From positions 322,463-386,462 of the forward strand of contig CBDBMR010000014.1 in assembly GCA_965207535.1 (NCBI GenBank): a DNA stretch of 64,000 bases, read 5' to 3'. Shown here piece by piece: positions 39,137-63,487 of the stretch (the stretch's first letter is position 1; each line of letters starts with the position of its first letter). Below the pieces are notes generated by a model that saw nothing but the letters and a program-made list of their open reading frames with translations, did no database searches and was not told where the DNA came from. The position numbers were made by a program, and so were the translations under genes. Source of the stretch: Rhodospirillales bacterium. Lineage in GTDB: Bacteria; Pseudomonadota; Alphaproteobacteria; Rhodospirillales; UBA2165.

Positions 39137-39156
39137 TGCCCACTTTATCCCACTAG
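39137..39156. promoter_or_regulatory. Repeated 20-bp upstream motif, copy 1
   Basis: TGCCCACTTTATCCCACTAG, identical to 48982-49001. It extends into the palindrome CCCACTAGTGGG (39149-39160). Confidence 0.65.
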
Positions 39157-39202
39157 TGGGTCATTTCAAAATGGTTTTTAGCCGGTGCCGGACGGGAGAA
39201 TT

Positions 39203-39397: not shown

Positions 39398-39424
39398 GTT
39401 CGTCCTTCGCAATTAGGTGGTTGC

Positions 39425-40174
39425 TCAGCGGGTGATTCCGCCTCCATCGACGATCAGGCACTGACCGCTGACAAAGTCCGCGTGATCGCTGAGAAAAAAT
39501 GCGGCCGGTCCAATAAGGTCGTCAGGTTGCTGATCGCGCCCCAAGGATCGCCCAGCGGCGATGGTTGCCTTCCGGTCCCCGATGCCCTCGCGGGCCAAGA
39601 CGCCCTCGCTCATGGTCAGGCCGGGGGCGATGGTGTTGACGCGAATGTTCTTTGGCCCAAGTTCGCGGATCAACGAGCGAGTCATCGCCAACACCCCGCC
39701 CTTGGATGCGTCATAGTGGAGCAGACCGGGATATCCGTGGAAGATGCGGTTGGTGGATACCATGACGATTGATCCGCCGCCCGCCCGCTCCATGGCCGGC
39801 ACGGCCGCCCGGGCGCACAACCAGGGCCCCTTGACATTGACCCGCATAACCTCGTCCCAGAGTTCGGGATCGATCTCGTCGTACGCCTCGATCGGCAGGG
39901 CCGAGAAAAGGGCCGCGTTGCAAACCAGCCCATCGACTCCCCCGAAAGCTTCCTCTGTTTCAGCGACCATCCGATTGCAGTCATCGAGACTGGTAACGTC
40001 TGCCTGGATTCCAATCGCCTTGCAGCCATCGGACGCGATCCGCCGAACGGCGTCGGAAGGATCGGCGAGGTCACAGACCGCAACGCTGGCGCCCATCCGG
40101 GCGAAGCCCGAAGCCATCGCGGCGCCGATTCCCTGTGCCGCCCCGGTTATGATTATCCGTTTAGAGTCCAACAT
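39425..40174 (-). CDS. Short-chain dehydrogenase/reductase
   Basis: TGAAQGIG, CNAA, YDASK (YxxxK), NTIAPG. Confidence 0.93.
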   Translation of the reverse strand: MLDSKRIIITGAAQGIGAAMASGFARMGASVAVCDLADPSDAVRRIASDGCKAIGIQADVTSLDDCNRMVAETEEAFGGVDGLVCNAALFSALPIEAYDEIDPELWDEVMRVNVKGPWLCARAAVPAMERAGGGSIVMVSTNRIFHGYPGLLHYDASKGGVLAMTRSLIRELGPKNIRVNTIAPGLTMSEGVLAREGIGDRKATIAAGRSLGRDQQPDDLIGPAAFFLSDHADFVSGQCLIVDGGGITR

Positions 40175-40216
40175 CAGATGCTCTCACCCCTCCCCTCGGA
40201 TCGGCTCCGCGGCAGC

Positions 40217-42289
40217 TTACAGATCCACGACCAGATCGGCCGCCACGAGACGATCCGCCGTCACGAACAGCGGATTGATTTCCAAGGACGGCAGCCGGTC
40301 GGCGGCCTCCGACATCCGCACCAACAATTTCGCCAGGGCATTACGGTTCACCGGTCCGGCGCCACGCCAGCCATCCAGCATGCGCTCCGCCCTTATTTCC
40401 CCGATCATGGCGTGAGCTTCGCCTTCGCCGAATGGCGCCTTGCGATAACTCAGGTCATCAAGCAATTCACACAAAGTTCCACCTGAGCCGAGCATGACAA
40501 GCGGCCCGAAATGCGGATCGCTTCGGGCAGCCAGCAGGACTTCGACGCCGTTGATGTGAGGACACCATGTGACATGGATGTCCGGCCAGTTCCCCGCGTG
40601 TTCTTCCGCCAGTCTCGCCAAATCGCCGTAGGCGGCTTCCACAGCCGCCGGCACCGAGAGGTTGATCCGCACGCCGTCCAATTCGGTCCGGTGTTTCAAC
40701 CCCGCCGCCGTCAGCTTGAGCACTATGGTCTTGTGATCCCCGAGCGCGGATACCGCCTCCTCCGCCGATTTGACCGGCGCGTCGGTCAGTACCTCGATGC
40801 CGGTCTCTCGAAGGATATCGACCACCGCATCCAGACTTTTCGCCTGCACACCCGGAGGAAGAGGCGCCGTGGACGGTTTCTCGAATGACTTCCCGGTTCG
40901 CACCAGCTTGGCGACCGCCTCCGTCATGACGGTCGGATCGTCGAATACGGCGATACCGCTTCTCACCAGATCAGCGCGATCCTCGCTCTCGAGATTTGCC
41001 GCGATGGCGATCAGTTTGTCCGGGTGACCGGCTTGAAACGTCAGCATTTGCGACATGATCCCGTCGCGGGTTCGGGGGACCAGGGGCACATGGCTGATAT
41101 AACCGAGCATCGTTTGTGGATCGCGCTCAAGCCCCCACTTCAGATGACCGCCGGTAATTTCCATGTCGCTCATGGATGGCGCGGAGATGTCGATGGGATT
41201 GCGGTCATTGACGAACGAGTTCGTCTGTTTGAGATCGGCCAGCGCACCCTTGGGATATTCGGGGAGCTCCAGGCCGTTCTTTGCCGCGGCATCCGATATC
41301 ATCACGGCGCCCCCGCCCGAAACCGAGACAGCGGCTATTTCGGGAGAGGCCGGAATAGCCCCGGCGTTGCAAGCGGCGACCAGATCGATCATTTCATTGA
41401 TTGATCCGGCCCGCAAAACGCCAAACTGGCAAAACAAGTCCTCGACAACCCGGTCTTCGACGTAAACCGACGCGGTGTGCCCGGTTGCGGCCTCGCCGCC
41501 CTGGGGAGTGGTCCCAACCTTGAGAACCACCACGGGCTTTCTTGATTGCCGCGCCAGTTCCAGCGCCTGAACCAGCTTCAAACCACGGCTGGCGTCTTCC
41601 ATGTAAACGGCAATCGTCTTCGTCGCGGGATCACCGGCATAGAACGCGATCGCGTCGCAGATATCGATATCGGCCTGGTTTCCGGTGGATATCCAATTGG
41701 CCAGTCCCAACCCGCGGTCGCGCAGTTGCGCAAAAATCTGAATGCCGACCGCGCCGGACTGACTTGCAACGGAGATATCCCCCACCACCGGCCAGCCGTT
41801 GCCCCCGTGATGTTCAGGGGCGCTGGTAAAACTGGCGACAAATCCGGATGCCAATGACATCACACCCATGCAGTTGGGCCCGATCATCCGCATGTCATGG
41901 TCCTGGGCGATCTTCAGCAGCTCGTCCTGCCGGAGCCGTCCCTCGGCGCCGGCCTCCGCAAACTGCGCGCCATAGACGATGGCAATGCTTGCCCCCTTCT
42001 CCCCGGCGGCTATCAAATTTTCGCGCACGAGCGCCGCGGGCACCGCGATCACGGCAATGTCCGGGGCCTCGGGAAGATCGGAAATGCTCCGATAGGCCTC
42101 GATGCCCTGGACGATTTCGTTTTTTGCATTCACCGGGTAGAGTCGGCCCGCATATCGTCGTTCGAGACAGAATTTCAATGCGCGTCCGCCGAATTTCATC
42201 GGATTCGTCGACGCACCGATGATCGCCGCCGATTGCGGACGAAAGCACATCTCCAGCTTTCCGAATTCCGACTTGTCGAGTTGCTGCAT
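40217..42289 (-). CDS. Acetate-CoA ligase (ADP-forming) family acyl-CoA synthetase
   Basis: IIGAS, MIGPNCMG, SQSGA, ISTGNQAD, TGHTAS (phospho-His), C-terminal ATP-grasp with EINP. Confidence 0.9.
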   Translation of the reverse strand: MQQLDKSEFGKLEMCFRPQSAAIIGASTNPMKFGGRALKFCLERRYAGRLYPVNAKNEIVQGIEAYRSISDLPEAPDIAVIAVPAALVRENLIAAGEKGASIAIVYGAQFAEAGAEGRLRQDELLKIAQDHDMRMIGPNCMGVMSLASGFVASFTSAPEHHGGNGWPVVGDISVASQSGAVGIQIFAQLRDRGLGLANWISTGNQADIDICDAIAFYAGDPATKTIAVYMEDASRGLKLVQALELARQSRKPVVVLKVGTTPQGGEAATGHTASVYVEDRVVEDLFCQFGVLRAGSINEMIDLVAACNAGAIPASPEIAAVSVSGGGAVMISDAAAKNGLELPEYPKGALADLKQTNSFVNDRNPIDISAPSMSDMEITGGHLKWGLERDPQTMLGYISHVPLVPRTRDGIMSQMLTFQAGHPDKLIAIAANLESEDRADLVRSGIAVFDDPTVMTEAVAKLVRTGKSFEKPSTAPLPPGVQAKSLDAVVDILRETGIEVLTDAPVKSAEEAVSALGDHKTIVLKLTAAGLKHRTELDGVRINLSVPAAVEAAYGDLARLAEEHAGNWPDIHVTWCPHINGVEVLLAARSDPHFGPLVMLGSGGTLCELLDDLSYRKAPFGEGEAHAMIGEIRAERMLDGWRGAGPVNRNALAKLLVRMSEAADRLPSLEINPLFVTADRLVAADLVVDL

Positions 42290-43768: not shown

Positions 43769-44245
43769 TCAATCGCCGATCAGGAATGTGCCCTCGATCT
43801 CGACCGGCTGGCGATCCACCAGCCCATCCACGCCGACCGAAGAGCGGGCATGGCAACCTATTTCCGGGCCGAACGCCTCATAGAACAAATCGCTGGCCCC
43901 GTTCAACACTATATTCTGCCGCTCGAAATCCGGATGAGCGTTGATCATTCCGAGAATTTTTACCACCCGCTTCACCCGATCCAAATCGCCCACATGATGC
44001 CTGACCGTGGCGATCATCTTTATCGCCAAGGCGCGTGCAACTTCATACCCCTCATCCTCGGTGATCTCCAAACCGACCTTTCCGCGCCGCTTCACGTTTC
44101 CTTCCTCCAGGAGCGCGGCACCGTGGCCGGATACGTAGAGCATCTTGTCCACAAGCACGGCGCTGGTTCGGTTGGGACTGGGCAGAACGAGCGGCTCCGG
44201 CAAGGTTATTCCCATATCCTGCAGGCGAGCCTCGATTTTCGACAT
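43769..44245 (-). CDS. RidA/YjgF family protein
   Basis: LYVSGHG, RVVKILGMIN, VLNGASDL, HARSSVG, PVEIE. Confidence 0.9.
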   Translation of the reverse strand: MSKIEARLQDMGITLPEPLVLPSPNRTSAVLVDKMLYVSGHGAALLEEGNVKRRGKVGLEITEDEGYEVARALAIKMIATVRHHVGDLDRVKRVVKILGMINAHPDFERQNIVLNGASDLFYEAFGPEIGCHARSSVGVDGLVDRQPVEIEGTFLIGD

Positions 44246-44327
44246 GATGCTGCCCTTGACGCAGTGGATGAAGGTCAAACGAAATCATTTCGTTTGGCAG
44301 GAACCGTGGAAATTTCACTTGCAGTAT

Positions 44328-44348
44328 TGCCCATTATCTGCCCATTAG
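44328..44348. promoter_or_regulatory. Variant of the CCCAYT direct-repeat motif
   Basis: TGCCCATTATCTGCCCATTAG between the divergent ridA and ligM-like genes. Confidence 0.5.
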
Positions 44349-44404
44349 TAAACAGAAAAGGCTCACGCCTACATGTTCACCGCCTCTGGAACGGGAGAAG
44401 GTCA

Positions 44405-45769
44405 ATGGCAATTGAGACACTCGAAGACAAGATCAACTCGATAGGCAATCCGGTGGATATGCTCCGCAACGCCGCCGCCGGGCCGTACCAGTTTCCCATC
44501 ACCTCCGAGTTCAGCAATTGGCGCGACGAGCAGGAGGCCTGGCGCAACGGCGCGGTCCTGTTCGACCAGTCGTTCCACATGACCGATCTATATGTCGAGG
44601 GTCCGGATACCAGGAAGTTGTGCGAATACCTGGCGGTCAATTCAATGGCCAACTGGCAGCGCGATCTCGCCAAGCAATTCGTTCACTGCACGCCGGATGG
44701 TTATGTGGTTGGCGACGCGATCATATTTATCCTCGAGGAAGACAAGGCCAATATCGTCAACAAACCCAGCAATGCCAACTGGGTGACGTATCACGCCGAG
44801 AAAGAGGGGTTTGACGTCTCCTTCGATCTCGACATGCGCGCACTGGACAACAGGGGACGGCGCAAGGGATACCGGTTTGAAGTCCAGGGTCCCGAAGCCT
44901 GGTCGCTCCTGGAAAAACTGAACGGCGGGCCGATCGAGCAGTTCAAATTCTTCCGGATGGGCGAAATCAACGTGGCCGGCCGGCAGGTACGGGCACTGCG
45001 GCACGGCATGGCCGGCGCAGTCGGCTTGGAACTCTTTGGCCCGTTCGACGACTACGACCTCATCCGCGACGCCATCCTCGAGGCGGGTCAGGAGTTCGGC
45101 ATCAGGGCCGCCGGCTCCAAGACCTATTCGACCGTCGCGCATGAATCCGGATGGTTCCCTTCGCCGCTTCCCGCGATCTATTCCAGCGGCGATCTTGCCG
45201 ATTACCGGCGGTGGCTGCCCGCGACAAGCTTCGAGGCCAACCTGTCATTGGGCGGCTCGTTGGTCAGCGACAACGTGGAGGACTATTACCTCACGCCCTA
45301 CGACCTGGGCTACGGCCATATCGTCAAGTTCGATCATGACTTCATCGGGCGCGATGCGCTGGAGGCGAAAAAGGATCAGCCGCACAGGCACAAGGTGACG
45401 CTTCGGTGGAACAAGGACGATGTGCTGAAGGTGTTTGCTTCCATGTTCAATGAAGGCGACCGGTACAAGTTCCTCGACATACCCGCATCTCACTACGCGA
45501 CCTGCCCCTATGACCTTGTGACCAGGGACGGCAAGCCGGTCGGATTGTCCCACTATCCGGTCTACACATCCAATGTCGCCGGCTGGATTTCCCTGGCCCT
45601 GCTGGATGAGGAAGCGGCCGCCCCCGGCACGGAGGTCTCGTTGACGTGGGGCGAACCGGACGGCGGGACCATGAAACCGGCCGTCGAACGTCACGTTCAG
45701 ACCGAAATTGCCTGCACGGTGGAGCCCTGTCCGATTTCAGTCACGGCGCGGGAAACGTACAGAAAGTAG
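44405..45769 (+). CDS. ligM: THF-dependent aminomethyltransferase-family demethylase (LigM/DesA-like)
   Basis: NPVDMLRN...SEFSNWRDEQEAWRNGAVLFDQSFHM, YRFEVQGP, RHGMAG..GLELFGP, TPYDLGYG. Start ATG 44405. Confidence 0.82.
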   Translation: MAIETLEDKINSIGNPVDMLRNAAAGPYQFPITSEFSNWRDEQEAWRNGAVLFDQSFHMTDLYVEGPDTRKLCEYLAVNSMANWQRDLAKQFVHCTPDGYVVGDAIIFILEEDKANIVNKPSNANWVTYHAEKEGFDVSFDLDMRALDNRGRRKGYRFEVQGPEAWSLLEKLNGGPIEQFKFFRMGEINVAGRQVRALRHGMAGAVGLELFGPFDDYDLIRDAILEAGQEFGIRAAGSKTYSTVAHESGWFPSPLPAIYSSGDLADYRRWLPATSFEANLSLGGSLVSDNVEDYYLTPYDLGYGHIVKFDHDFIGRDALEAKKDQPHRHKVTLRWNKDDVLKVFASMFNEGDRYKFLDIPASHYATCPYDLVTRDGKPVGLSHYPVYTSNVAGWISLALLDEEAAAPGTEVSLTWGEPDGGTMKPAVERHVQTEIACTVEPCPISVTARETYRK

Positions 45770-49954: not shown

Positions 49955-49968
49955 CGGCGGATCGCTCT

Positions 49969-50835
49969 ATGACGGATTTACGCACCTCTTCCTGGTCTCT
50001 GGAGGCCACACTGCCGAAGCCGGCGGAGATCGAGGCTGTGGCGTCGGTCATCGAGGAGGGAACGGAGGTTTTCCTCAGCACACTTCCGCACGTCTCGTTG
50101 GACCAGCAGATCGAAACGGCGCGGATCGTCCGGTCAAACGGGCTCGAGCCGGTTCTCCACATCGCCACTCGGTACTTCGCGACACGGACGGAAATGGTGG
50201 GATACCTCGCGCGCGCCAACCAGGAGGCGGAGGTCTCCAGAGTACTCGTCATCGGCGGCGACCTGCATCCGCCCCGCGGCGAATTCGATTCCGCACTGGC
50301 ATTCATCAAGAGCGGATTGGCTTCCGACTACGGCATCAAGAGGATTGGCGTCGCCGGATATCCGGAAGGACATCCGAAAATTCCTGATGCCACGCTTTGG
50401 ACCGAAATGGGGGAGAAATTGGCTTCCGCCCGGGCGCAAGGATTGGATTTCGAGATCGTGACCCAGTTCTGCTTTAGTCCCGACGCCATCGTGGACTGGC
50501 TCGACGACACCTGGGAGCGCTGGCCCGGGACGCATGTGCGTCTCGGCTTCGCGGGACCGGCCTCCGCAAAGTCGATTCTGCGTTACGCATTAAGGTGCGG
50601 CGTGAAGACCCCGAAAAGCGGACTGGGTCACAAGCTTACGGCGGCCTCTCGATTGGCAAAGAATCACGACCCGGCGCCGTCAATTGTGGCGGTCGGGGAT
50701 GCCATTCGGCAAAAATCAGGCTCGGCGTCCGTTCATTTGTTCTCCTTCGGCGGAGTTGAAAACACGGTGCGCTGGATGAACCGCGGTCTCGGGTCATCAC
50801 GCTCGGCGGACCGCGATCCCCAGGCCTACGCTTAA
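49969..50835 (+). CDS. metF: Methylenetetrahydrofolate reductase-like protein (short alphaproteobacterial type)
   Basis: SLE, PVLHIA, VIGGD, GVAGYPEGHP, IVTQFCF, GFAGPAS...LRYALRCGV. Confidence 0.8.
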   Translation: MTDLRTSSWSLEATLPKPAEIEAVASVIEEGTEVFLSTLPHVSLDQQIETARIVRSNGLEPVLHIATRYFATRTEMVGYLARANQEAEVSRVLVIGGDLHPPRGEFDSALAFIKSGLASDYGIKRIGVAGYPEGHPKIPDATLWTEMGEKLASARAQGLDFEIVTQFCFSPDAIVDWLDDTWERWPGTHVRLGFAGPASAKSILRYALRCGVKTPKSGLGHKLTAASRLAKNHDPAPSIVAVGDAIRQKSGSASVHLFSFGGVENTVRWMNRGLGSSRSADRDPQAYA

Positions 50836-52879: not shown

Positions 52880-53506
52880 CTATTGCAGCGGTGAAAAGGG
52901 GACCGGAACCAGAATTTTGTTTTCTTGAACGCTCATCTCTTCTTCTTCGCCGGGTCCGTGTTTCGGCGGCCAGAGTCCCTCGGCAACGACATCCTCGCGG
53001 ATTTTCTGGCGTTGATTGAGGTCCTCGTAAGCCCAAATATGAACGAGTTTATTCACGGTTCCCGTATCACCCTGCAGGATCATCATAACGGGAGAATGCT
53101 TCGTCCGACCGGGAAGAGCTTCGGTCCACCGCCGCTTTGCTTGTGGCATGAGACCAGGTTTTACCAGATAACTCCTGTATTCGTAGAAGCGGCCGTATCT
53201 GCCGGGCTCCGGCACCGGCGCCAACTCCCATGGAGTGAAAACTTCCGAAGATTGTTTGATCACGTTGGGCGCAATTTTGGGTGGCCACCAATCATTGGCG
53301 GCAGCTTCCGCCCTGATCCGCGCCCTTTCATTCGTATCTTCGTACTGCCATACGTGGACGATTTGATTGAGGGGCCCGATCTCCGTTTGCCAGAACCCCA
53401 CAAGCTTGGACAACTCTTGCCGGTAACCGATAACCTTGGCAAAAGCATCGACAACTTCCTGCACCTTGCCGACCTTCAAGTCATAGGTTCGAATTTCAAT
53501 GATCAT
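52880..53506 (-). CDS. NIPSNAP family protein (two domains)
   Basis: IIEIRTYDLKVG...IGPLNQIVHVWQY..R, repeated in the second half. Confidence 0.9.
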   Translation of the reverse strand: MIIEIRTYDLKVGKVQEVVDAFAKVIGYRQELSKLVGFWQTEIGPLNQIVHVWQYEDTNERARIRAEAAANDWWPPKIAPNVIKQSSEVFTPWELAPVPEPGRYGRFYEYRSYLVKPGLMPQAKRRWTEALPGRTKHSPVMMILQGDTGTVNKLVHIWAYEDLNQRQKIREDVVAEGLWPPKHGPGEEEEMSVQENKILVPVPFSPLQ

Positions 53507-53572: not shown

Positions 53573-54022
53573 TCACCAGCCGACAACGTCGAGGTTCGTC
53601 TTAATTTTGTCCAAAGTCTTGGACAGGATCTTGAGCTCGGATTTGGGAATGCCGGCCAGTGCCTTGCCGAGTTCTTCTTGGGCGATATCGGCGCACTTCC
53701 TGTAGAGACGCCGCCCTTTCTGAGTCAGCGACACCTCAATGCTGCGTTTGTCCTGCTTCGACTGCCTGCGCTGGACGTATCCATCCTCATCCAATTTGTT
53801 AAGCATATGATGAAGCGCCGTACGTTCGACAAATGTGCGATCGGCCAACTTTGTCATGGCTATCCAGCTTTCTTCCCCGAGCGCTCCCAAAATTCGCCAT
53901 TGAACGATCGACATTTTGATCGGCGCCCTGGAGACAATGTTTTCCTGGGACTTTCTCACGACCATCAGCATGGAAATAAACGGATAGTCGACAACCCTGA
54001 ACTGACCGGTTTTTTGCGTCAT
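53573..54022 (-). CDS. MarR family transcriptional regulator
   Basis: QWRILGAL...LADRTFVERTALHHMLNKL...QDKRSIEVSLTQKG. Start ATG 54022. Confidence 0.88.
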   Translation of the reverse strand: MTQKTGQFRVVDYPFISMLMVVRKSQENIVSRAPIKMSIVQWRILGALGEESWIAMTKLADRTFVERTALHHMLNKLDEDGYVQRRQSKQDKRSIEVSLTQKGRRLYRKCADIAQEELGKALAGIPKSELKILSKTLDKIKTNLDVVGW

Positions 54023-54257
54023 GGTTATGGTGGTTCCATCGTGTTGCCTCGAAAACAAACTCGAGCCTGGTGTCTCGCGGGGCGCCATACCTGCATTGGT
54101 CTGCCGTCAAAACGCCAGCTGTTTTAACGGTCTCCGCCGCAACGGACAATCCCCGTCCACTATTTCGGGCTCTCCCGGTCCGGTGTGCCACGGATCGCCA
54201 CGGAAACTCGTGTCTCAACAGGCGGGCGCATAAATATTTGACGAGGATTTTATTCTG

Positions 54258-54303
54258 ACATATAAGTTAATTAGGTGAAAATTCACTTAATTAACTTATA
54301 TGT
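54258..54303. promoter_or_regulatory. 46-bp near-perfect AT-rich palindrome containing GTGAAAATTCAC
   Basis: ACATATAAGTTAATTAGGTGAA-aa-TTCACTTAATTAACTTATATGT, 22-bp arms with one mismatch, 15 bp upstream of the monooxygenase start. Confidence 0.8.
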
Positions 54304-54318
54304 TGGATTGGCAAGGAA

Positions 54319-55962
54319 ATGACGAAGATTGATACACCCATTCTGATTGCGGGCGGCGGTCCCGTCGGCATGTTGCTGGCCATGGAATTGGCGGACAAGG
54401 GCGTTAAGTTTCTCCTGGTCAATGATCAGCCGACCACCCGAGCGCATCCTCAGGCCGGGACCATCAACAGCCGGACGATGGAACATTTTCGACGCCTGGG
54501 GTTATCGGAAGAAATTCGAAAGACAGGTTTGCCCATGGATCATCCCGCCGACAGCGTTTACGTAACACGGATTGCCGAGTTTGAACTGCTGCGGCATGAA
54601 ATGCCCACCCTGCGCGAGAAAATCGGCAATCCCGGCCCCTGGGGAGAGACCAAACTGACGCCTGAGCCGATTCATCGATCCAACCAGCGGCACTTTGAAC
54701 CGCTCATGTATGAACGCATCACATCGACCGATTGCGCCGATGTTCGGTTTGGCTGGCGGCTCGTCTCGTTTGAGGACAGGGGCGATCACGTCATTGCCCA
54801 AATTGAGCAAATGGAAACCGGTCATCTGGAGAGGATCAGCTGCCGCTATCTCGTCGGCTGTGACGGGGCGAAGGGCCCGGTCAGGAGGTCGCTCGGTATC
54901 AAGTACAGCGGTCGCAGCAGTTCCGAATCGGCATTTTACGATGGGCGGATGTTGTCGATATTCGTGAAGTCCGATGAGATCGCTGCTTCCGCCAATATGA
55001 AAAATGCCTGGCACTACTGGACAATCAACTCGAAGGGCAGAACCGACTTCATCACGCTGAACGGGGCCGGAGAGTATATGGTACTTGCCGAAGTCCGTTC
55101 AGACGCACCTCTGGATGAACTGGATGTCCGCGGCATAGTGTCGAACGCCGTCGGCGCGGATGTGGATTTCGAGGTTGCTTCGGTCCGCGAATGGCTCGCC
55201 GGTTTGGCGGTGGTCGCGGACGAGTATCAGCGGGGCCGCGTGTTCTTGGCGGGTGATGCCGTCCATCTGTTCACGCCTTCCGGCGGCTTTGGCTTCAATA
55301 CAGGCGCGGACGATGCTGCCAACCTGGGTTGGAAACTTGCCGCCGTAGTTCAGGGCTGGGCGCCGCCCGCCCTCCTCGACAGTTATGAAATTGAACGCCG
55401 GCCGATCGGCAAACGGAACACCGGTGTTTCCGGCAGGTACGCCGGTATGATCGCCAAATTGGAGTTCGATGAAACCATCGAGAAGAATTCCGCCGAAGGC
55501 GAGGCGGCGCGCGACGTCCTCCGCGGAGAGTTGAAGCATTTCAAAGAGGAATTTGCCAGCATGGGAATCGTCCTTGGCGCCCGATATGACGGCTCCCCCC
55601 TTATCATCGCAGATGGCACCACACCGCCGGAAGACGATCCGGCGATCTACACCCCTAGCCCGACCCCAGGCGGCCGGACCCCTCACTATTGGATTGACGA
55701 AAAATCGTCGCTTTTCGATGAATTGGGACCGTGGTTCACCCTTCTCAAGATGGGCTCGGCGGCGCCCGATACGTCCAAGCTGGAGAAGGCGGCGGGGGAA
55801 CTTGGGGTCCCACTGAAGGTTCTCCAGGTTGAGGAGGGTGGTATCGTGAATCTGTATGAACAGCCTTTGGCCCTGGTGCGCCCCGATCACTATCTCGCCT
55901 GGCGGGGAAACTCGGTGCCCGGAGATTCAAAGGGAGTCCTGACCAAGGTGATCGGGGGATGA
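54319..55962 (+). CDS. FAD-dependent aromatic monooxygenase (PheA/TfdB-like)
   Basis: IAGGGPVG, LVGCDGA, LAGDAVH..TPSGGFGFNTG..DAANLGWKL, LVRPDHYLAW. Confidence 0.92.
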   Translation: MTKIDTPILIAGGGPVGMLLAMELADKGVKFLLVNDQPTTRAHPQAGTINSRTMEHFRRLGLSEEIRKTGLPMDHPADSVYVTRIAEFELLRHEMPTLREKIGNPGPWGETKLTPEPIHRSNQRHFEPLMYERITSTDCADVRFGWRLVSFEDRGDHVIAQIEQMETGHLERISCRYLVGCDGAKGPVRRSLGIKYSGRSSSESAFYDGRMLSIFVKSDEIAASANMKNAWHYWTINSKGRTDFITLNGAGEYMVLAEVRSDAPLDELDVRGIVSNAVGADVDFEVASVREWLAGLAVVADEYQRGRVFLAGDAVHLFTPSGGFGFNTGADDAANLGWKLAAVVQGWAPPALLDSYEIERRPIGKRNTGVSGRYAGMIAKLEFDETIEKNSAEGEAARDVLRGELKHFKEEFASMGIVLGARYDGSPLIIADGTTPPEDDPAIYTPSPTPGGRTPHYWIDEKSSLFDELGPWFTLLKMGSAAPDTSKLEKAAGELGVPLKVLQVEEGGIVNLYEQPLALVRPDHYLAWRGNSVPGDSKGVLTKVIGG

Positions 55963-56046
55963 CTCAAGCCGGCCCCGCAACAGGGCACGAAATTTCACTA
56001 ATTCGGGCCGCCTTGCAGGCGCGCCTGAAACATGGAGGTCAGAATA

Positions 56047-57027
56047 GTGTCTGAAACAATGAGAGCCATCCAAGTGACCGAGTTTGGCGGCCCCGAGGTT
56101 CTGAAACTCGTCGAGGTGCCAGTACCTGATCCGGGCGATGACGGTGTCCTCGTGAAACAAGCCGCCGCGGGAATAAACTATGCGGACGTCTACCAAAGAG
56201 AAGGCAGGAGTGGCGGCACGCCGCCTTTCATTATCGGCCGGGAGGGTGCCGGCACTGTCGTGGCGGTGGGAAGGAATGTGTCCGGTGTTGCCGTGGGCGA
56301 CCTTGTCTCCTACAGGGGTCCCAAACCGGGCGGCTTTTCCGAATACGTCGTTGCGTCGCCCAACCTGCTATTCAAGGTGCCGGACGGAATCTCGCCGCTT
56401 CAGGCGACCGCCATCCAGGTCCAGGGTATGACGGCCCACTATCTGAGCCATGACGTGTTCGAAATCAAAGAGGGTCACACCTGTCTTGTCCACGCCGGTG
56501 CCGGGGGTGTGGGTCACATTCTGATACAGATCGCCAAGGCCAAGGGAGCCACCGTGTTCACCACGGTCGGCAGCGCCGAAAAGGCGGATTTGTCAAGTTC
56601 CTATGGCGCCGACGAAGTCATTTTGTACCGCGAGCAGGACTTTGCGGAGATCGTTCTTGAAAAAACCGATGGAGAGGGCGTCAATGTCGTTTATGACGCG
56701 ATCGGCAAGACAACCATTGAGGGCTCCATAAAATCGGTTGGTTTTCAGGGCACCGTGGCCCTCTACGGAGATGCGTCGGGGCAGACGCCGCCCGTCGACA
56801 CCAAGCTTCTCGGTGAAAAATGCAGCTACCTGACCCGCGTGGGGCTTCCGCACTTCACCCGCAGCGACGAGGAGGTTGCCCGCCGCTGCAGTGATTTGGT
56901 TGATCTCATCAAGGCCGGCAAGCTCAATTTGAATATCGCCGAACCGTGGCCGCTGGAAAAGGCCGCCGAGGCCTTTGCGGCGCTTGAAGGCAGGCAAACG
57001 ACCGGCAAGCAAATCCTACAACCCTAA
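56047..57027 (+). CDS. NADPH:quinone oxidoreductase (zeta-crystallin MDR family)
   Basis: FGGPEVL, GINYAD, GMTAHYL, HAGAGGVG, TTGK. Confidence 0.92.
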   Translation: MSETMRAIQVTEFGGPEVLKLVEVPVPDPGDDGVLVKQAAAGINYADVYQREGRSGGTPPFIIGREGAGTVVAVGRNVSGVAVGDLVSYRGPKPGGFSEYVVASPNLLFKVPDGISPLQATAIQVQGMTAHYLSHDVFEIKEGHTCLVHAGAGGVGHILIQIAKAKGATVFTTVGSAEKADLSSSYGADEVILYREQDFAEIVLEKTDGEGVNVVYDAIGKTTIEGSIKSVGFQGTVALYGDASGQTPPVDTKLLGEKCSYLTRVGLPHFTRSDEEVARRCSDLVDLIKAGKLNLNIAEPWPLEKAAEAFAALEGRQTTGKQILQP

Positions 57028-57109
57028 CCGGACCAACCTTGACGCGCCAACGGCGGCAACGCGGCGGCGATGGGCCCCGGCCGAAAGAAACGAGATCGTG
57101 GAAAATTCA

Positions 57110-58249
57110 ATGGACCCTACGAAAACCGTCAAAACTCCAGTGGGGGCAGTCATCGAGCCAACCTACGATGTGTCGGACGTGCCGCCACATTACGATGTGC
57201 CGACGCCGGACTTTTGCGCTCTAGACGGCCCGGTGCGCCTGGATTCGAATGAATCGGCTTTCGGCACGTCGAAGGCCGCCCAAGAGGCCTACGCTGGGTG
57301 CCCTGATCTCCATCGTTATCCCGACATCGGTGCCAAATCGCTGCGGGAAGCCCTGGCAAGACACCATGGCCTAGATGCCGACAGAATTATCCCCGGCGCC
57401 GGCTCCGGCGAGGTGATCCACAGCCTCGGACATGCCTACCTTTGCCCCGGAGACGAGGTCATCTTTTCGCAACGTACGTTCGGCGCCTACAACGTCATCT
57501 CCCGCCTTAATGGCGCCACGCCCGTTCCCATTCCAGAGCTTGATTGGACGGCGAATCCGGCCGGGATGGTGGACGCCATGAATGACCAAACGCGGTTGCT
57601 TTGCTTGGCCAATCCCGACAATCCGACCGGAACTTATTTGGACGAAACCGACGTCCGCGCGCTTCTGGCCACATTGCCGCGGCACGCAATATTGCTGCAT
57701 GACGAAACCTACAGCGAGTTTGCGACTCAGTCCGACTTCCCGGACGGCCTTGGTTTGGTCGATGAGTTTGAGAATGTAGTTGTCACGCGGACATTCTCGA
57801 AGATATTCGGGCTCGCGGGGTTGCGGCTGGGTTGGGCATATGCCTCGCCGGCCATCGCCGACGCTCTGCGCCGCTACAAGGGTCCCTTTAATGTCTCGAC
57901 GCCGTCTGAGGCCGCGGCAGTGGCAGCGCTTGCCGACACAGAGTTCGTAAATCGAGCAATCAAGCACAATAAAATTTGGCGTGAGCGACTTGCAACGGAG
58001 TTTTCCAAATTGGGTCTAGCGGTCCCCGAAAGTGCGTCCAACTTTGTCATGATTATTTTCCCTGACCATCCGGGCAAATCCGCAACCGATGCTCAGAAGT
58101 TCCTTGTCGACAGGAACATCTTTCTGCGCCCATTGGCCGGGTGGGGGATCCCACAGGCCATTAGAATGACAATTGGAACCGAGGAAGAAAACACGCACGT
58201 ATTGGCAACGCTGACTGAATTCATGGAACTGAACCGCCTTGTCGAGTAG
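57110..58249 (+). CDS. hisC: Histidinol-phosphate/aromatic aminotransferase (class I/II PLP)
   Basis: LDSNES, RYPD, ANPDNPTG, HDETY, RTFSKIFGLAGLRLGW. Confidence 0.8.
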   Translation: MDPTKTVKTPVGAVIEPTYDVSDVPPHYDVPTPDFCALDGPVRLDSNESAFGTSKAAQEAYAGCPDLHRYPDIGAKSLREALARHHGLDADRIIPGAGSGEVIHSLGHAYLCPGDEVIFSQRTFGAYNVISRLNGATPVPIPELDWTANPAGMVDAMNDQTRLLCLANPDNPTGTYLDETDVRALLATLPRHAILLHDETYSEFATQSDFPDGLGLVDEFENVVVTRTFSKIFGLAGLRLGWAYASPAIADALRRYKGPFNVSTPSEAAAVAALADTEFVNRAIKHNKIWRERLATEFSKLGLAVPESASNFVMIIFPDHPGKSATDAQKFLVDRNIFLRPLAGWGIPQAIRMTIGTEEENTHVLATLTEFMELNRLVE

Positions 58250-58321
58250 GGCATGAGAGCCTTCCAATTTGTCAGTGTTGTGCCGCTCAGTGGCGAGCGA
58301 CTCCAGCATTCTTGATTTAAA

Positions 58322-58333
58322 GTGAATATTCAC
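58322..58333. promoter_or_regulatory. GTGAAWATTCAC palindrome upstream of the MetE-like gene
   Basis: tttaaaGTGAATATTCACttaaaa. Confidence 0.65.
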
Positions 58334-58442
58334 TTAAAATTCTTTACAGCCCACGGGCTAAGGTGGCTGGAATTAGTTCGTTCATACCTCTTGGCCACGT
58401 TGTTGCTGACGACTATTGGCAATCTGGTCGGGGGATCAATCT

Positions 58443-59552
58443 ATGAATCAGGGACGCTCGCTACCGCCTTACAGAGCCGATCATGTTGGCAGCCTGCTAA
58501 GACCTCATAGGCTCAGCGAAGCCCGAGCGGACTGTTCGGCCGGCAGGATTTTGGCTGACGATCTTCGAGAAATAGAAGATGAGTGCATTGCCGAAGCGGT
58601 CGCCAAGCAAGAACGGATAGGGCTGAATTCGGTAACAGACGGTGAGTTCCGTCGTGAGTCGTGGCACTACGATTTCTTGGGTAGCCTGGAGGGGATTGAT
58701 GTTACCGGTGTTCATCAGGGTCCCGCGTTCCAATCTGGATCTACCGCCAAATCCATTTGCACCACTGGCGTCATCCGGAACCCCGATGGGGTCATGATTG
58801 ACCACTTTAAGTATCTGAATGATATCAGCAGCGTAACCGCAAAATTCTGTATACCCTCGCCAAGCTTGGCCCACTATCGCGGCGGTCGCGACCTGATTGA
58901 CGATACCCTCTACCCTGATCTCACCCAATTTTGGGACGATCTTTGCGCGGCGTACCGAGACGAAGTCACCTACCTGGTAAGAGCCGGATGTCGATATCTG
59001 CAGTTTGACGACACGACTTTCGCCATGCTTTGCGACCCCAATATTCGAAAATATGTGGCCGACCGGGGAGACGACCCAGTCGAGCTGGTCTCCACCTATG
59101 CCAGAAGCATCAAGGGCGCGCTCTCGGAACGGCCACCTGAACTGACAGTTGCCGTTCACATGTGCCGCGGTAACTTCAAGAGTTCGTGGGTGGCTGAAGG
59201 CGGCTATGAGCCAGTCGCCGAGACCATGTTTGCCGAAGTTCCGGTGGATGGGTTCTTTATGGAATGGGATTCGGACCGAGCTGGAGGGTTTGAGCCATTG
59301 AGGTTCGCACCAAGGGACAAGATCATCGTCCTGGGTCTAGTCAGCTCCAAGTATCCCGAGCTGGAATCCAAAGACGACTTAAAGCGCCAGATCGACGAGG
59401 CGGCAAAATACGTACCGATTGAAAATCTGTGCCTCAGTCCACAGTGTGGTTTTGCAAGTATGGCCATTGGAAATGACATAAACCAAGACAGCCAATGGCG
59501 AAAACTTGAGCTCGTTGTTGAGACGGCAGCCGAGGTTTGGGGAGAGGCTTGA
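58443..59552 (+). CDS. Single-domain cobalamin-independent methionine synthase II-like (YxjH/core MetE) Zn protein
   Basis: ADHVGSLLRP, TDGEFRR, YLQFDDT, HMCRGN, FMEWD, SPQCGFAS (His/Cys/Glu/Cys Zn ligands). About 369 aa, i.e. only the C-terminal barrel. Confidence 0.88.
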   Translation: MNQGRSLPPYRADHVGSLLRPHRLSEARADCSAGRILADDLREIEDECIAEAVAKQERIGLNSVTDGEFRRESWHYDFLGSLEGIDVTGVHQGPAFQSGSTAKSICTTGVIRNPDGVMIDHFKYLNDISSVTAKFCIPSPSLAHYRGGRDLIDDTLYPDLTQFWDDLCAAYRDEVTYLVRAGCRYLQFDDTTFAMLCDPNIRKYVADRGDDPVELVSTYARSIKGALSERPPELTVAVHMCRGNFKSSWVAEGGYEPVAETMFAEVPVDGFFMEWDSDRAGGFEPLRFAPRDKIIVLGLVSSKYPELESKDDLKRQIDEAAKYVPIENLCLSPQCGFASMAIGNDINQDSQWRKLELVVETAAEVWGEA

Positions 59553-59790
59553 GGGGAGTCTCAGGATGACTTTATCCCCGGACCGACTTCGAAAATGATC
59601 CAGGAGGCGGCACAGCACCGATTTCTGGATTGACAGTCCTATGGTCCCAAACCTTTATACCGGACAGGTCTAACCAGGATGGAGCGCCGCGTTACCTGCA
59701 ATGTGCCTTCGCCCGTGGTGCAATTTCCTGGCGATCTCCGCGATGCGTTCACGTACCCATTTGTGAAACGGCGAGTGGTGGGTGAAAAAA

Positions 59791-59825
59791 GTGAATATTT
59801 ACCTATATTTTATGTGAAAATTAAC
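59791..59825. promoter_or_regulatory. Two degenerate GTGAAWATTCAC sites upstream of the orphan dctP
   Basis: GTGAATATTTAC (59791-59802) and GTGAAAATTAAC (59814-59825). Confidence 0.55.
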
Positions 59826-59912
59826 ATAGTATTCTCCTGTCAAGGAATGCAAATTCAATAATTGGCCGGACCTCTTGAAAGGACCGACCAAAATCACTTG
59901 GAGGTGAATACA

Positions 59913-60947
59913 ATGATTATCAGAGGATTGTTGGCTGGCCTTATCGGCCTCGGAGCCGTGCTGACAGCAGACACGAGTCATGCAGCCGAACGGTGGACAT
60001 GCAATATCTTTGGTGGCCCAAAACACTTCATCCAAAAGGTGCTGAGAGACTGGTCCAAGGACGTCAAACAAGCGACGAGTGGCGAGGTCGACATCAGATT
60101 TCTGCCGTCAAATGCGGCACCGCCGCCAAAACAGTTGGACGGTATCGTTGCCGGCACCTATGACTGTGCCTTCATATTCCACGCTTTCACCACCAGGAAA
60201 GCAATTGGACCGCAGTTCGGCATATTGCCTTTCATCGGTCCCGCTGATGCCTCGAAAGGTTCAATTGCCTTTCAACGAACCTGGAAAAAGCACTTTGCTG
60301 CCAAAAAGGAATTTGCGGATGATGGTCTCCATGTCTTGACCATGTTCCAATTTTCCGGCGTCCAGATTTACACTGCACGAAGCAAGCCGATCGATTCGGT
60401 TGAGGATCTAAAGAGCCAAAAGGTCTGGGCTCTTGCCGGCACGTCCTCCCGGACAATGAAGTCTTTGGGCGTCAGTCATGTCTCAGGCCCTGCCGCGCGA
60501 CTGGCTGAGTTCACCCAGACCAAGGTCGTACAAGGCCTTGTCGGTGCTTCGCCGTATATTGTGGCCGCTTTCGCAGGTATGCAGTTTCCAAGGTATGGAA
60601 CCAACACCAGTAAATCTCTAATGCTGCCGTCCTTCGGGTTGAAGGTTGGATCCAAAAAGTGGGATGCGCTGCCGGGTGAGACAAAACGGCAGGTAATGTC
60701 GGCGTCCGGGGAAAAGCTGGCAGCCGTTATCGGGCAGGCTTCAGAATCTGCCGAAGGAGTTGTACGAACCAAGCTTACAGCTGCTGGCGTCAAACATATC
60801 TCGGCGTCGAAAGAGTTCGAAGCCAGTCTGGTCAAAGCAGCGCGTCCCCAGATTGAAGCCTGGGTGCAGCAGGTAAAGGGTATTGGCGTCGACGGAAATC
60901 AGGTCATCAAAGATTACATAAGAATAGTCAACGAACTCGGTTCTTAA
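59913..60947 (+). CDS. dctP: Orphan TRAP substrate-binding protein (DctP family)
   Basis: Signal peptide, ATSGEVDI, DLKSQKV. No permease genes adjacent. Confidence 0.8.
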   Translation: MIIRGLLAGLIGLGAVLTADTSHAAERWTCNIFGGPKHFIQKVLRDWSKDVKQATSGEVDIRFLPSNAAPPPKQLDGIVAGTYDCAFIFHAFTTRKAIGPQFGILPFIGPADASKGSIAFQRTWKKHFAAKKEFADDGLHVLTMFQFSGVQIYTARSKPIDSVEDLKSQKVWALAGTSSRTMKSLGVSHVSGPAARLAEFTQTKVVQGLVGASPYIVAAFAGMQFPRYGTNTSKSLMLPSFGLKVGSKKWDALPGETKRQVMSASGEKLAAVIGQASESAEGVVRTKLTAAGVKHISASKEFEASLVKAARPQIEAWVQQVKGIGVDGNQVIKDYIRIVNELGS

Positions 60948-61089
60948 GTATCGACCTGTTCTGTAGTGGCAAAATGAGGGCGAGGATGCCCGGCAACAGA
61001 GCTGGAAGCCGGCAGAGATACCGCTGAGCTTTTGGAGCACGGCTCAAGCTAGGTTGTCCCGAACGTCGCGCGTATGCCGGACCAGTCGG

Positions 61090-62106
61090 TCAATCGAGGT
61101 TGAAGACTCCTCTGGCGTTTAGCTCGTAAAATTTGTCGGGATCTCCGAGGGTGATCTCGCTCGCCTGATTTACCTGTTGGGTAGAGTCGTCGTAGGGGTA
61201 GTCCACAGCGAACATGAGCCGATCCTCTCCCACGACCTCCTCCGTGAAGCGAACGGCGGGACCCCAATTGTGACCCGAACTCGAAAGCCAGAAGTTTTCT
61301 TTGAAGTATTCACTTGGAATACGCTCGCAACGCCAATGTGGATAGGCGTCAAATCCTGCACGGTTGTATGAAAACATGCGGTCAATCCGATCAAGCCAAA
61401 ACGGTATGCCCTCTCCGAGATGCCCTAGAACAATCCTCAAACCGGGATGGCGATCGAATACCCCGGTTACAATCATTCGAAGCGCGTGCACCGCGGTTTC
61501 TGTCTGAAACCCCCATAACGCTCCTTCCAGGTGTCGTTCCGCCATCGGGCCCATCATTGCAGGAGATGCCGGACGCGGATGAATGTAGAGAGGTAACTCC
61601 AGAGCCTCGATGGCCTCTAGCAATGGCCGAAATGCAAGGCCATCCAGATATTCGCCCTTGGTGTGCGAGTTGACCATAACGCCCTTTAGGCCGAGCGCTT
61701 TGGCGCGCTCAATTTCTTTCGCGGCGGTCTTGGGCGCCTGAGGCGCAACACTAGCCAATCCCGCAAATCTCTCGGGACGAGCCGCTACCGACTCCGCTAG
61801 TATTTCATTAGCCTCTGTAGCCAAATTGCTGCCTGTGTCGGCGTCGAACACCTGAACGCCCGGTGAGGTAAGGGCAATTACCTGCAAATCCACGCCTGAT
61901 TTATCCATATCCTCCAGCCGCAAGGGACCGAGATCGAGCAAACGCTTCTTGATCTCCGCGCCCCGACCTTTTGGGCTCATGACCAGTCGGTTTAGGTGGT
62001 GATCCAGGCCCGGCTCACCAACCGCGCCATCGTTCAGCAGATCCTGCCAAGCGTTCACGACGGACTTTGTGACAAATGCTTCTTCTACGGCGATCTTCTT
62101 GGGCAT
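61090..62106 (-). CDS. Amidohydrolase-2 family aromatic acid decarboxylase (LigW-like)
   Basis: IAVEEAF, LTSPGVQ, ANE..A..V..RPERFAGL, LYIHP, LGHLGEGIPF, FAVDYPY. Confidence 0.82.
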   Translation of the reverse strand: MPKKIAVEEAFVTKSVVNAWQDLLNDGAVGEPGLDHHLNRLVMSPKGRGAEIKKRLLDLGPLRLEDMDKSGVDLQVIALTSPGVQVFDADTGSNLATEANEILAESVAARPERFAGLASVAPQAPKTAAKEIERAKALGLKGVMVNSHTKGEYLDGLAFRPLLEAIEALELPLYIHPRPASPAMMGPMAERHLEGALWGFQTETAVHALRMIVTGVFDRHPGLRIVLGHLGEGIPFWLDRIDRMFSYNRAGFDAYPHWRCERIPSEYFKENFWLSSSGHNWGPAVRFTEEVVGEDRLMFAVDYPYDDSTQQVNQASEITLGDPDKFYELNARGVFNLD

Positions 62107-62324
62107 GCATGTACTCCTGACCGAGCCGCGTTTGCAAAGGGCGGCATTCGTATAGTGGCAATTGGCGGGTTCTTCCGCCGCAGGATAAACCGGAACCGAA
62201 CCCCAGCGGCGCTTTAACGGCGGCACGGAAAAATTTGTCGTCGGATGGCGGTGCCGTCATTGCCGCCAACACTCGAGGTCCGCTGACAGGCAGATCATGT
62301 TTTACGGCAATATACCGTCTAATA

Positions 62325-62348
62325 GTGAAAATTCACATGAATTTTCAC
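62325..62348. promoter_or_regulatory. Tandem GTGAAAATTCAC-type sites between the divergent decarboxylase and TAXI genes
   Basis: GTGAAAATTCAC (62325-62336) immediately followed by ATGAATTTTCAC (62337-62348). Confidence 0.7.
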
Positions 62349-62443
62349 ATAAAATCGATGACTCCCGGAGTGTTGGATGGTAATCTCCATGAGACACGTC
62401 AACCGAATTCAGCTGGCCCAAAAGTGCCAGGGGGAGAAGCTTC

Positions 62444-63487
62444 ATGAAACGCATATTGCTAGCAACGCTTGCTGCATCATTTGTCGCTGGGGGCGCGCAG
62501 GCGCAAAACCTCAAACTAACCATGACGGCGGGAGGGATCGGCGGAGCCACCGATATCGCAGCGAGGAACCTCGCGGAGGTGGCCTCGGCGAACAAAATCG
62601 CAACCATTCAGGTGCAGGTTGGCAAGACCCTGACAAAGACCTTGCGGGATGTGGCGGAGGGTAAGACCAACATCACCGCCGGAGCCAATGTCCTGCCGTT
62701 CTTGATGTCTCGCGGGCTTGGGCCGTACTCGGGCCTCGGTAAGGAGAATGGCAAGAGGCTCGCGGGCAACCTCCGTATGCTCTACCCCTATCATTTGGCT
62801 TCCATGTACCTTGTCGCCTTCCAAAGTACCGGGATCGACAGCTTCGAGAAACTGAAGGGCAAGGTCGTACATAATGGCCCGCCCCGCGGCGGTGCATTGA
62901 TTACCGCCCGCCAGGTTATCCAACTTTCAGCAGGTTTGGCGGATGGAAAAGACTACACCGGCAAACAAATCGCGTGGGGACAGGCAACGTCGATTTTCCT
63001 CGATCGGTCCGTTGACGCCGCGCTCCGGCCCGGAACCAATCCGGCCGAGTTCATGCCGATCTATCTGGCTGCCGGTAAACTTAATCTGGTTTCCGTTCCG
63101 AAGGCAAAATGGGAAGGGCCGGCGTGGCAGAAATTTCTGAACGCGCCCGGCAACGCGCCGGCATTTTTCCCGATCAAGGAGCTCGAGCATTATGGCCCGA
63201 ACGTGAAAATAGTTTCCGATGACGGCATGTTCCGGACGGTGGCGATTACGGGCGGTGATTTCGTCAACAAGAACATGGACAGGACTCTCGCCAAGGCCCT
63301 GACCGCAGCCTTCATCAAAAGTGTTCCCAATCTTTTGAAGAAGGTTCCGTTCGCCAAAGGCCAGCGCTACGGCACGGTCGACATTGTCGAACACGGCATC
63401 TGTAGCGCCGGCGTCAAACTGCATCCAGGTGCGGTAGAGGCATGGGAAGAGGCCGGCCATAAAGTCGCGGATTGCGCAAAGGGTTAG
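62444..63487 (+). CDS. TAXI-family TRAP solute-binding protein (orphan in window)
   Basis: Signal peptide, TAGGIGG, GIDSFEKLKGK, KLHPGAVEAWEE. Confidence 0.85.
   Translation: MKRILLATLAASFVAGGAQAQNLKLTMTAGGIGGATDIAARNLAEVASANKIATIQVQVGKTLTKTLRDVAEGKTNITAGANVLPFLMSRGLGPYSGLGKENGKRLAGNLRMLYPYHLASMYLVAFQSTGIDSFEKLKGKVVHNGPPRGGALITARQVIQLSAGLADGKDYTGKQIAWGQATSIFLDRSVDAALRPGTNPAEFMPIYLAAGKLNLVSVPKAKWEGPAWQKFLNAPGNAPAFFPIKELEHYGPNVKIVSDDGMFRTVAITGGDFVNKNMDRTLAKALTAAFIKSVPNLLKKVPFAKGQRYGTVDIVEHGICSAGVKLHPGAVEAWEEAGHKVADCAKG

Follow-up and report, generated by a model that had tools for sequence, protein, structure and literature searches.

A 64-kb stretch of DNA from a Rhodospirillales bacterium (contig CBDBMR010000014.1, positions 322,463 to 386,462; "the window" below, with positions counted from its first letter) contains what appears to be a local repressor regulon for the catabolism of aromatic compounds. 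Copies of a palindromic box, GTGAAWATTCAC, lie in the promoter regions of four transcription units next to a gene for a MarR-family protein, and the box is found in every locus known to carry an ortholog of this protein. One of the four units is a gene for a single-barrel MetE-like protein. We consider it probable that the boxes are operators of a local MarR repressor and that the MetE-like gene, a late recruit to the regulon, encodes a homocysteine methyltransferase.

Palindromic boxes in four promoter regions

Exact copies of the box start at positions 54275, 58322 and 62325. The expectation from an exact-match scan is 0.02 per window, and not one of 100 shuffles of the window equalled the observed count. 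Three additional boxes, each with one mismatch, start at 59791, 59814 and 62337, the last being read on the minus strand. When up to one mismatch is allowed, the window yields 11 strand-matches against 0.51 expected. Since the G+C content of the window is 59%, these AT-rich boxes are even less likely to have arisen by chance. With a 16-bp matrix built from sites of four lineages, whose consensus is A-n-GTGAA-WW-TTCAC-n-T, the six sites reach 21-28 bits; elsewhere in the 64 kb the highest scores are 13.5 bits (at 30359) and 10.1 bits. Scanning the window with the motif and the matrix identified no comparable box elsewhere. The 13.5-bit site, which has one mismatch and lies between convergent genes, was taken as a chance match.

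The sites, listed here without strand, are distributed as follows:

54258-54303: 46-bp palindrome with operator O1 (core 54275-54286), overlapping the predicted promoter and ending 15 bp before the monooxygenase ATG
58322-58333: operator O2, a perfect palindrome, GTGAATATTCAC; at 28.1 bits the top-scoring site
59791-59825: operators O3a (59791-59802) and O3b (59814-59825); 23.3 and 23.5 bits
62325-62348: operators O4a (62325-62336) and O4b (62337-62348); 24.7 and 21.2 bits

The genes that they flank were identified from Pfam and NCBIfam profile scores, plus PDB sequence matches:

53573-54022, minus strand: MarR-family winged-helix repressor, 149 aa (PF12802, 39.9 bits, cut-off 27; PF01047, 37.2 bits, cut-off 24.6)
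54319-55962, plus strand: FAD-dependent aromatic-ring monooxygenase of the PRK06126 class (PF01494 and PF21274; PRK06126, 608 bits, cut-off 445)
56032-57027, plus strand: medium-chain-dehydrogenase-type NAD(P)H:quinone oxidoreductase-like protein (ADH_N, ADH_zinc_N; PRK10754, 228 bits, below the cut-off of 348)
57110-58249, plus strand: HisC-family class I/II aminotransferase, 379 aa (PF00155; TIGR01141, 278 bits, cut-off 277)
58443-59552, plus strand: single-barrel MetE-like protein, 369 aa (PF01717 only; PRK06520 / YxjG-YxjH class)
59913-60947, plus strand: DctP-family TRAP solute-binding protein (PF03480; TRAP_S1, 62 bits, cut-off 50)
61090-62106, minus strand: LigW-like amidohydrolase (Amidohydro_2), putative non-oxidative hydroxybenzoate decarboxylase, 338 aa (PF04909)
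62444-63487, plus strand: TAXI-type TRAP solute-binding protein (PF16868; TIGR02122, 70 bits, below the cut-off of 84)

Between 54.0 and 62.4 kb, no intergenic region bears a promoter other than the four with boxes. The O1 box sits 33 bp ahead of the divergent monooxygenase ATG, at the centre of a palindrome whose two 22-nt arms (54258-54279 and 54282-54303) are 95% complementary. O2 falls between the -35 and -10 hexamers (TTGATT-17-TAAAAT) of a predicted sigma-70-like promoter that the MetE-like gene has to itself, about 100 nt upstream from that gene. O3a and O3b, 23 bp apart, are found 5′ of the DctP-type gene, and O4a and O4b abut in the divergent promoter region of the LigW-like and TAXI genes. 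An initial annotation of this DNA had listed the six positions of the GTGAAWWTTCAC box, placed them in four long promoter regions from 54 to 62.4 kb, noted the 46-bp palindrome around the site that it regarded as the strongest, and joined the MetE-like gene to the box regulon. The first three observations are borne out by the scans and by the placement of the boxes, and the position of O2 inside the gene's own predicted promoter lends support to the fourth. The gene products, too, are all as that annotation described them; their order is not, as the DctP-type gene precedes the LigW-like gene.

Duplication of promoter segments was rejected as the source of the boxes. Local alignments among the four regions exceed those of shuffles only over the 12-16 nt of the box; as their similarity ends at the box, the regions are not duplicated segments.

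If transcribed, the 46-bp palindrome (within 54250-54325) would form a 25-bp hairpin (-30.8 kcal/mol, z = -10.5) immediately ahead of the monooxygenase gene's ribosome-binding site.

The box accompanies a small clade of MarR proteins

The MarR protein belongs to a clade of only seven members (61-95% identity) in a collection of 5.8 billion proteins. The corresponding loci span four lineages: L001, L007 and L008 are close (~95%) relatives of the window; L009, L010/L011 and L012 have MarR identities of 64-68%. Exact boxes are present in all seven loci, beside marR, the monooxygenase operon or the DctP gene. Intergenic DNA in L009, L010/L011 and L012 has a G+C content of 62-66% and cannot be aligned with that of the window, yet it carries the box, both ahead of the monooxygenase gene and between marR and the DctP gene. 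The distance from the box to the monooxygenase ATG is always 31-33 bp (31 bp in L009 and L010). In a control set of 79 loci (1.34 Mb), made up of 69 loci with monooxygenase homologs of 29-60% identity, loci with MetE homologs and one distant match, only two exact matches were found, one of them inside a coding sequence. MarR is the sole regulator common to the box-bearing loci, and its orthologs (64-95% identity) hardly vary in the recognition helix and wing. The matrix scan found no box in the flanks of L007 and L008 outside the regulon. A scan of JGI metagenomes for further MarR loci gave a single match (L086, 29% identity).

The co-occurrence of the box with MarR orthologs in seven loci out of seven, with the 79 controls at chance level, makes the MarR protein the best candidate for the factor that would bind the boxes, as initially proposed; there is strong comparative support for binding by the adjacent MarR. 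Confinement of the boxes to four promoters, together with this co-occurrence, likewise supports the notion that they mark a local regulon. The palindromic operator overlying the promoter of an adjacent, divergent target is the arrangement typical of a MarR-type regulator that would bind there.

We propose that a dimer of the 149-aa MarR protein occupies 16-bp palindromes situated at, or just past, the core promoters of four transcription units: the monooxygenase/quinone-reductase/aminotransferase operon, whose intergenic region is shared with marR; the MetE-like gene; the DctP-type binding protein gene; and the divergent pair for the LigW-like decarboxylase and the TAXI binding protein. With MarR on the box, RNA polymerase would be blocked; analogy with other MarR regulators suggests that a phenolic or quinoid compound would act as effector and release the repressor. 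Such a scheme has much in common with local MarR/SlyA repressors (e.g., HpaR and the hydroxycinnamate- or protocatechuate-responsive regulators), which are small winged-helix proteins encoded divergently from their target operon and which, like here, have short palindromic operators over core promoters, several per regulon. It differs in that the MarR of this locus scores below every NCBIfam equivalog cut-off (52 bits for HpaR, where 121 is required) and belongs to the clade of seven described above. Its box was linked with no operator already described, no literature search having been aimed at it. The marR start codon is most likely the one at 54022, as called in relatives, rather than the one at 54088 that gives a longer open reading frame (ORF).

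Further observations concern the boxes. The long arms of the O1 palindrome are limited to the lineage of the window, L009 and L010 keeping the 12-16 bp core alone. The 70 bp that separate the monooxygenase gene from the reductase gene contain a degenerate box with two mismatches (ACGAAATTTCAC, 55988-55999); the counterpart of this box in L007 (8025-8036) reads GTGAAATTTCGC, with one mismatch and a score of 11.3 bits. It could act weakly as an operator inside the transcription unit, or it could be a remnant. Finally, the top control match to the matrix (AGGTTAATTTTCACCT, 21.7 bits) is at 5822-5837 in L016, from a Rhodospirillaceae metagenome-assembled genome (MAG), where part of it coincides with a stop codon; the surroundings are AT-rich, and a 369-aa gene follows after about 90 bp. 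The L016 monooxygenase (60% identity) is the closest genome-derived homolog and the contig starts within its gene, so that marR was possibly cut off; the site could be a real one, for a related regulator.

A conserved core and recent additions

The genes conserved among the loci are marR and those for the monooxygenase (74-77% identity), the reductase (77-78%), the aminotransferase (63-67%) and a DctP-type protein. The DctP proteins of L009, L010 and L012 are 85% alike mutually and only 26-27% identical to the DctP protein of the window, which is still their best match there. The low identity indicates that the binding protein was replaced in the window lineage. The MetE-like, LigW-like and TAXI genes occur in the window lineage only. 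Likely, then, the ancestral regulon would have comprised MarR, monooxygenase, reductase, aminotransferase and one TRAP binding protein; the lineage of the window would then have exchanged the binding protein and gained the LigW-like, TAXI and MetE-like genes, each with its box.

The most recent of these events can be followed in L007 and L008, which come from the same metagenome (ERZ25069412) and have a synonymous divergence (dS) of 0-0.01 at the marR, TAXI and LigW-like genes. O3a and O3b are kept in both, as well as in L001, and O4a and O4b are kept in both. O2 is present in L001 and L008; L007 lacks it together with the MetE-like gene, and the 3′ end of its aminotransferase gene has diverged from that of L008. 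This presence-absence difference identifies the MetE-like gene as a recent, still polymorphic addition, whose operator either arrived with it or was gained afterwards. The gene shows no sign of decay: its ratio of nonsynonymous to synonymous divergence (dN/dS) is 0.16-0.24, similar to that of its neighbours, denoting purifying selection. The MetE-like gene is no core part of the circuit, as neither the orthologous clusters whose MarR is 64-68% identical nor the 95%-identical sister haplotype L007 contain it. The gene content of L007 and L008 also diverges past the NIPSNAP gene (see below).

The MetE-like protein as a candidate homocysteine methyltransferase

The 369-aa MetE-like protein consists of a Meth_synt_2 barrel (PF01717) and lacks the Meth_synt_1 folate domain. 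It scores 454.9 bits with PRK06520 (cut-off 313), placing it in this family, whose product name (a methyltetrahydrofolate-triglutamate enzyme) probably claims too much for a protein devoid of the folate domain. It falls short of the YxjG/YxjH equivalog PRK06233 (329 bits, cut-off 576) and of canonical MetE, TIGR01371 (33 bits, cut-off 930), where only the C-terminal half is matched. The latter result agrees with the initial view that the protein is not a full-length, methyltetrahydrofolate-dependent (methyl-THF) MetE. Alignment with the 375-aa Listeria YxjG/H-type structure 1YPX is end to end (325 bits).

Catalytic residues have been listed for MetE (E. coli numbering) as zinc ligands H641, C643, E665 and C726 and homocysteine-binding S433, E484 and D599 (Price et al., PMC7857596). 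Their equivalents in the MetE-like protein are H239, C241, E274 and C335 for zinc, and S17, E68 and D189 for homocysteine. E274 was assigned through the beta-strand motif FFMEWD; a phmmer alignment to T. maritima MetE puts the gap elsewhere. All seven residues are conserved at ≥97% among 116 homologs. As these residues are kept, zinc and homocysteine binding are predicted and, with them, methionine-synthesis chemistry. Most likely, the protein methylates homocysteine rather than acting as a lyase on a pathway intermediate. We thus picture an enzyme that would form methionine from homocysteine with a non-folate or yet to be identified donor, and that would be induced together with the breakdown of methoxylated, lignin-type aromatics, serving either as a sink for methyl groups or as a spare methionine synthase.

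Riboswitch control of the gene was rejected: no Rfam match reached the gathering score in the window, nor E ≤ 1 in the interval 58230-58470, and the leader folds no better than shuffled sequences (z = -0.84). Firmicute YxjG/YxjH genes are under S-box control. The MetE-like protein shares with YxjG/YxjH core MetE proteins (1YPX of Listeria; PRK06233, PRK06520) the PF01717 barrel of ~370 aa and the zinc and homocysteine residues. It differs from the Firmicute genes, which are linked with methionine metabolism, in having a MarR box at its promoter and no riboswitch that we could find. A second relative is MesD, an oxygen-dependent methionine synthase that acts with MesX (PMC7857596): it too is a core MetE of aerobic proteobacteria that lacks the folate domain and shares the catalytic residues. 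Identity with MesD was rejected, however, as the match to 3RPD is only 28 bits (E = 9e-6), confined to the N-terminal half, and no DUF1852 (MesX) partner was found among the ~45 window proteins scanned.

Around homologs of 65-70% identity the genes are unrelated and for the most part housekeeping-looking: moaE upstream with a convergent VanA-like Rieske gene; ATP synthase and gcvTHP alongside; or, before tandem copies, a GCV_T-family gene and sulfatases. No monooxygenase gene is present in any of the five distinct MetE-homolog contexts. In the tandem arrangement (L084, 4318-9104), genes for 366- and 367-aa proteins follow the GCV_T-family gene and an unannotated 346-aa gene, with sulfatases and a sulfotransferase on the flanks, a hint that the class handles methyl-group traffic. 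A second, 378-aa gene with faint likeness to PF01717 is found in L008 (18477-20450), ~10 kb from the regulon, beside a bicupin gene and an RraA-like (HMG-aldolase-type) gene; it extends past the end of the retrieved sequence, and tblastn found no counterpart in the window.

Several points weigh against the proposal as a whole. This MarR is known from just four lineages, and three of the seven loci with an ortholog match the window at ~95% identity. The proposal does not explain what the aminotransferase does or which substrate enters the pathway. The link of the MetE-like gene to the pathway may be loose, the gene being dispensable in the sister haplotype L007. The characterised core MetE families MesA, MesB and MesD work with corrinoid proteins or require MesX, and neither kind of partner was observed here. 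What such homologs do in aerobic marine bacteria has been openly questioned (PMC12478193), and a P. inhibens "Mes-like" mutant retained the lag-phase shortening induced by DMSP (dimethylsulfoniopropionate), the only trait reported (PMC12366255). Our literature searches found no biochemistry on YxjG/YxjH, no member of the class with a demonstrated methyl donor, and no report of a MetE-like demethylase or of the family in degradation clusters.

Alternative explanations

An unlikely alternative, argued by analogy, is that co-regulation would be protective: quinones formed in the pathway would inactivate zinc-thiolate methionine synthases, and an extra core MetE would be induced as a spare. The pairing of a hydroxylase with a quinone reductase in the regulon is in line with this, as are the dispensability and recent addition of the MetE-like gene and the precedent of B. 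subtilis, in which MetE and YxjG are S-thiolated under oxidant stress, resulting in methionine auxotrophy, and the alkylation of thiols by quinones (PMC4360819). But analogy is the sole footing of this scenario, a build-up of quinones is unsupported, and the spare enzyme would share the vulnerable zinc-cysteine site.

We regard as quite improbable the possibility that the MetE-like protein makes no methionine and is instead a zinc-thiol transferase or lyase akin to epoxyalkane:coenzyme M transferase, adding for example a thiol onto a quinone or epoxide. A Zn-thiol enzyme acting on a pathway intermediate had been the initial suggestion, and it would account for the boxes shared with monooxygenase and quinone reductase, for the lack of a riboswitch and for the intact zinc site. 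MetE-like paralogs (40% and 48% identity) also adjoin FAD_binding_3 aromatic hydroxylases in two unrelated alphaproteobacterial MAGs (L035, 1376-11593; L065, 2104-4606), a hint of recurrent association in too few cases to decide. However, the Ser/Glu/Asp triad for the amino-acid end of homocysteine is conserved across the family and argues against a non-amino-acid thiol. The gene is missing in L007 and in all more distant orthologous clusters, and its closest homologs stand beside moaE, ATP synthase, gcvTHP and the like. Recurrent linkage between MetE-like and RebC-like monooxygenase genes was rejected in turn: with L035, L065 and, weakly, L062, the 2-3 MetE-like neighbours per 69 monooxygenase loci are not clearly above chance. 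The conserved triad and the dispensability of the gene thus disfavour the suggestion. The libraries searched gave no XecA match for the MetE-like protein, no direct sequence comparison with XecA having been made. L035 also contains a distant MarR, a Crp-type regulator and a cupin.

It is very doubtful that the boxes are bound by another factor, such as a second MarR (23551-24069), a Crp/Fnr-type protein or a MetR-like protein, with the adjacent MarR recognizing something else. GTGA-N4-TCAC loosely resembles Crp/Fnr half-sites and TGAA...TTCA those of MetR, and the window does encode a second MarR and a TetR. Still, half-sites are separated by N6 for CRP and by N5 for MetR; on this ground CRP- and MetR-like sites were rejected, the spacing here being N4 (N2 if read as TGAA/TTCA). 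The second MarR was rejected as it is not in the orthologous loci that keep the box; L009, L010 and L012 keep it with the MarR ortholog as sole regulator. Nor does a box turn up in the remaining 54 kb of the window or in the DNA that flanks the regulon in L007 and L008.

That the MetE-like enzyme moves a methyl group straight from a methylated pathway compound onto homocysteine is a long shot; the donor would be, for example, the methoxy group of a vanillate-like product of the co-acquired LigW-like enzyme, or that of a methoxy-hydroquinone made by the monooxygenase.

Implications

As a regulon, the cluster is of a kind already known, a local MarR repressor with palindromic operators being the textbook type. 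The main value of the locus is in the MetE-like gene. Single-barrel homologs of the PRK06520/YxjG-YxjH type are very common in aerobic bacteria (>8000 cluster representatives matched) and are routinely annotated as methyl-THF methionine synthases; in aerobic marine bacteria, the function of such homologs is stated as unknown (PMC12478193, PMC12366255). Here one copy appears to have traded methionine-type control for a putative aromatic-responsive repressor, near LigW- and LigM-like genes. This regulatory switch suggests inducing conditions as well as a short list of candidate methyl donors. Direct transfer, if true, would represent a cofactor-free aryl-methyl-ether:homocysteine methyltransferase and provide the first physiological donor for a large orphan class in aerobic bacteria. 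The cluster also offers a clean, small case of regulon growth, with one binding protein replaced and three genes added, each with an operator, the MetE-like addition being still polymorphic in the population.

Gene products and surroundings of the regulon

The closest solved structure to the monooxygenase is RebC (PDB 2r0c, 300 bits). The aminotransferase gene is the final one of the monooxygenase operon, its start having been deduced from relatives, and the closest PDB entry to its product is 4r2n, a "putative phenylalanine aminotransferase". The closest solved relatives of the LigW-like protein are the 5-carboxyvanillate decarboxylases LigW/LigW2 (PDB 4inf/4qs5, 283 bits); no NCBIfam model was matched. 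The DctP-type gene of the window has no adjacent membrane-subunit genes, and reading the sequence downstream of the TAXI gene showed no permease gene within the window. One more gene is possibly co-transcribed with marR and thus a tentative member of the regulon:

52880-53506, minus strand: NIPSNAP-domain protein (PF07978), 67 bp downstream of marR on the same strand

It adjoins marR in the window lineage only.

About 10 kb upstream of the regulon lies a gene for a LigM/DesA-type tetrahydrofolate-dependent aryl O-demethylase (ORF 43850-45769, plus strand; coding part ~44415-45769). The product scores 494 bits with PDB 5x1i, 570 with NCBIfam LigM (cut-off 580) and 597 with DesA (cut-off 800); the 190-aa N-terminal extension of the listed ORF is probably not translated. 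A weak methylenetetrahydrofolate reductase (MTHFR)/MetF-like gene (~49960-50835, plus strand; PF02219, 31 bits; TIGR00676, 34 bits) is found ~4 kb upstream, flanked by genes for a metallo-beta-lactamase-fold protein and an alpha/beta hydrolase. The two genes suggest one-carbon handling in methoxy-aromatic catabolism. Co-directional genes at 37633-42289 (minus strand) encode an ADP-forming acyl-CoA synthetase (CoA_binding and ATP-grasp_5, 689 aa), a short-chain dehydrogenase/reductase, an isochorismatase-like hydrolase and an enoyl-CoA hydratase, a layout that we take to be reminiscent of hydroxycinnamate (ferulate) side-chain cleavage genes. The LigM-like, MTHFR-like and acyl-CoA synthetase genes point to a neighbourhood devoted to lignin-type methoxylated aromatics, and the methyl groups that aromatic demethylation yields would be a reasonable motive for co-inducing a methionine-forming enzyme.

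This gene set is similar to that for LigW/LigM catabolism in Sphingobium sp. SYK-6, the LigW-like gene being inside the regulon and the LigM-like gene 10 kb upstream; the present locus differs in that its LigM-like gene stands apart from the regulon, with no box. We know of no counterpart in the SYK-6 pathway for the RebC-like monooxygenase/quinone reductase/aminotransferase core. The matrix scan found no box at the LigM-like, MTHFR-like, acyl-CoA synthetase, transporter, second MarR or TetR genes. The window holds several TRAP and tripartite tricarboxylate (TTT) transporters; the intervals 20098-27382 and 22875-24069, probably the other regulon of the initial annotation, comprise a complete TRAP DctPQM operon, the TetR gene, the second MarR gene (23551-24069, minus strand) and a TctCBA tricarboxylate-type transporter.

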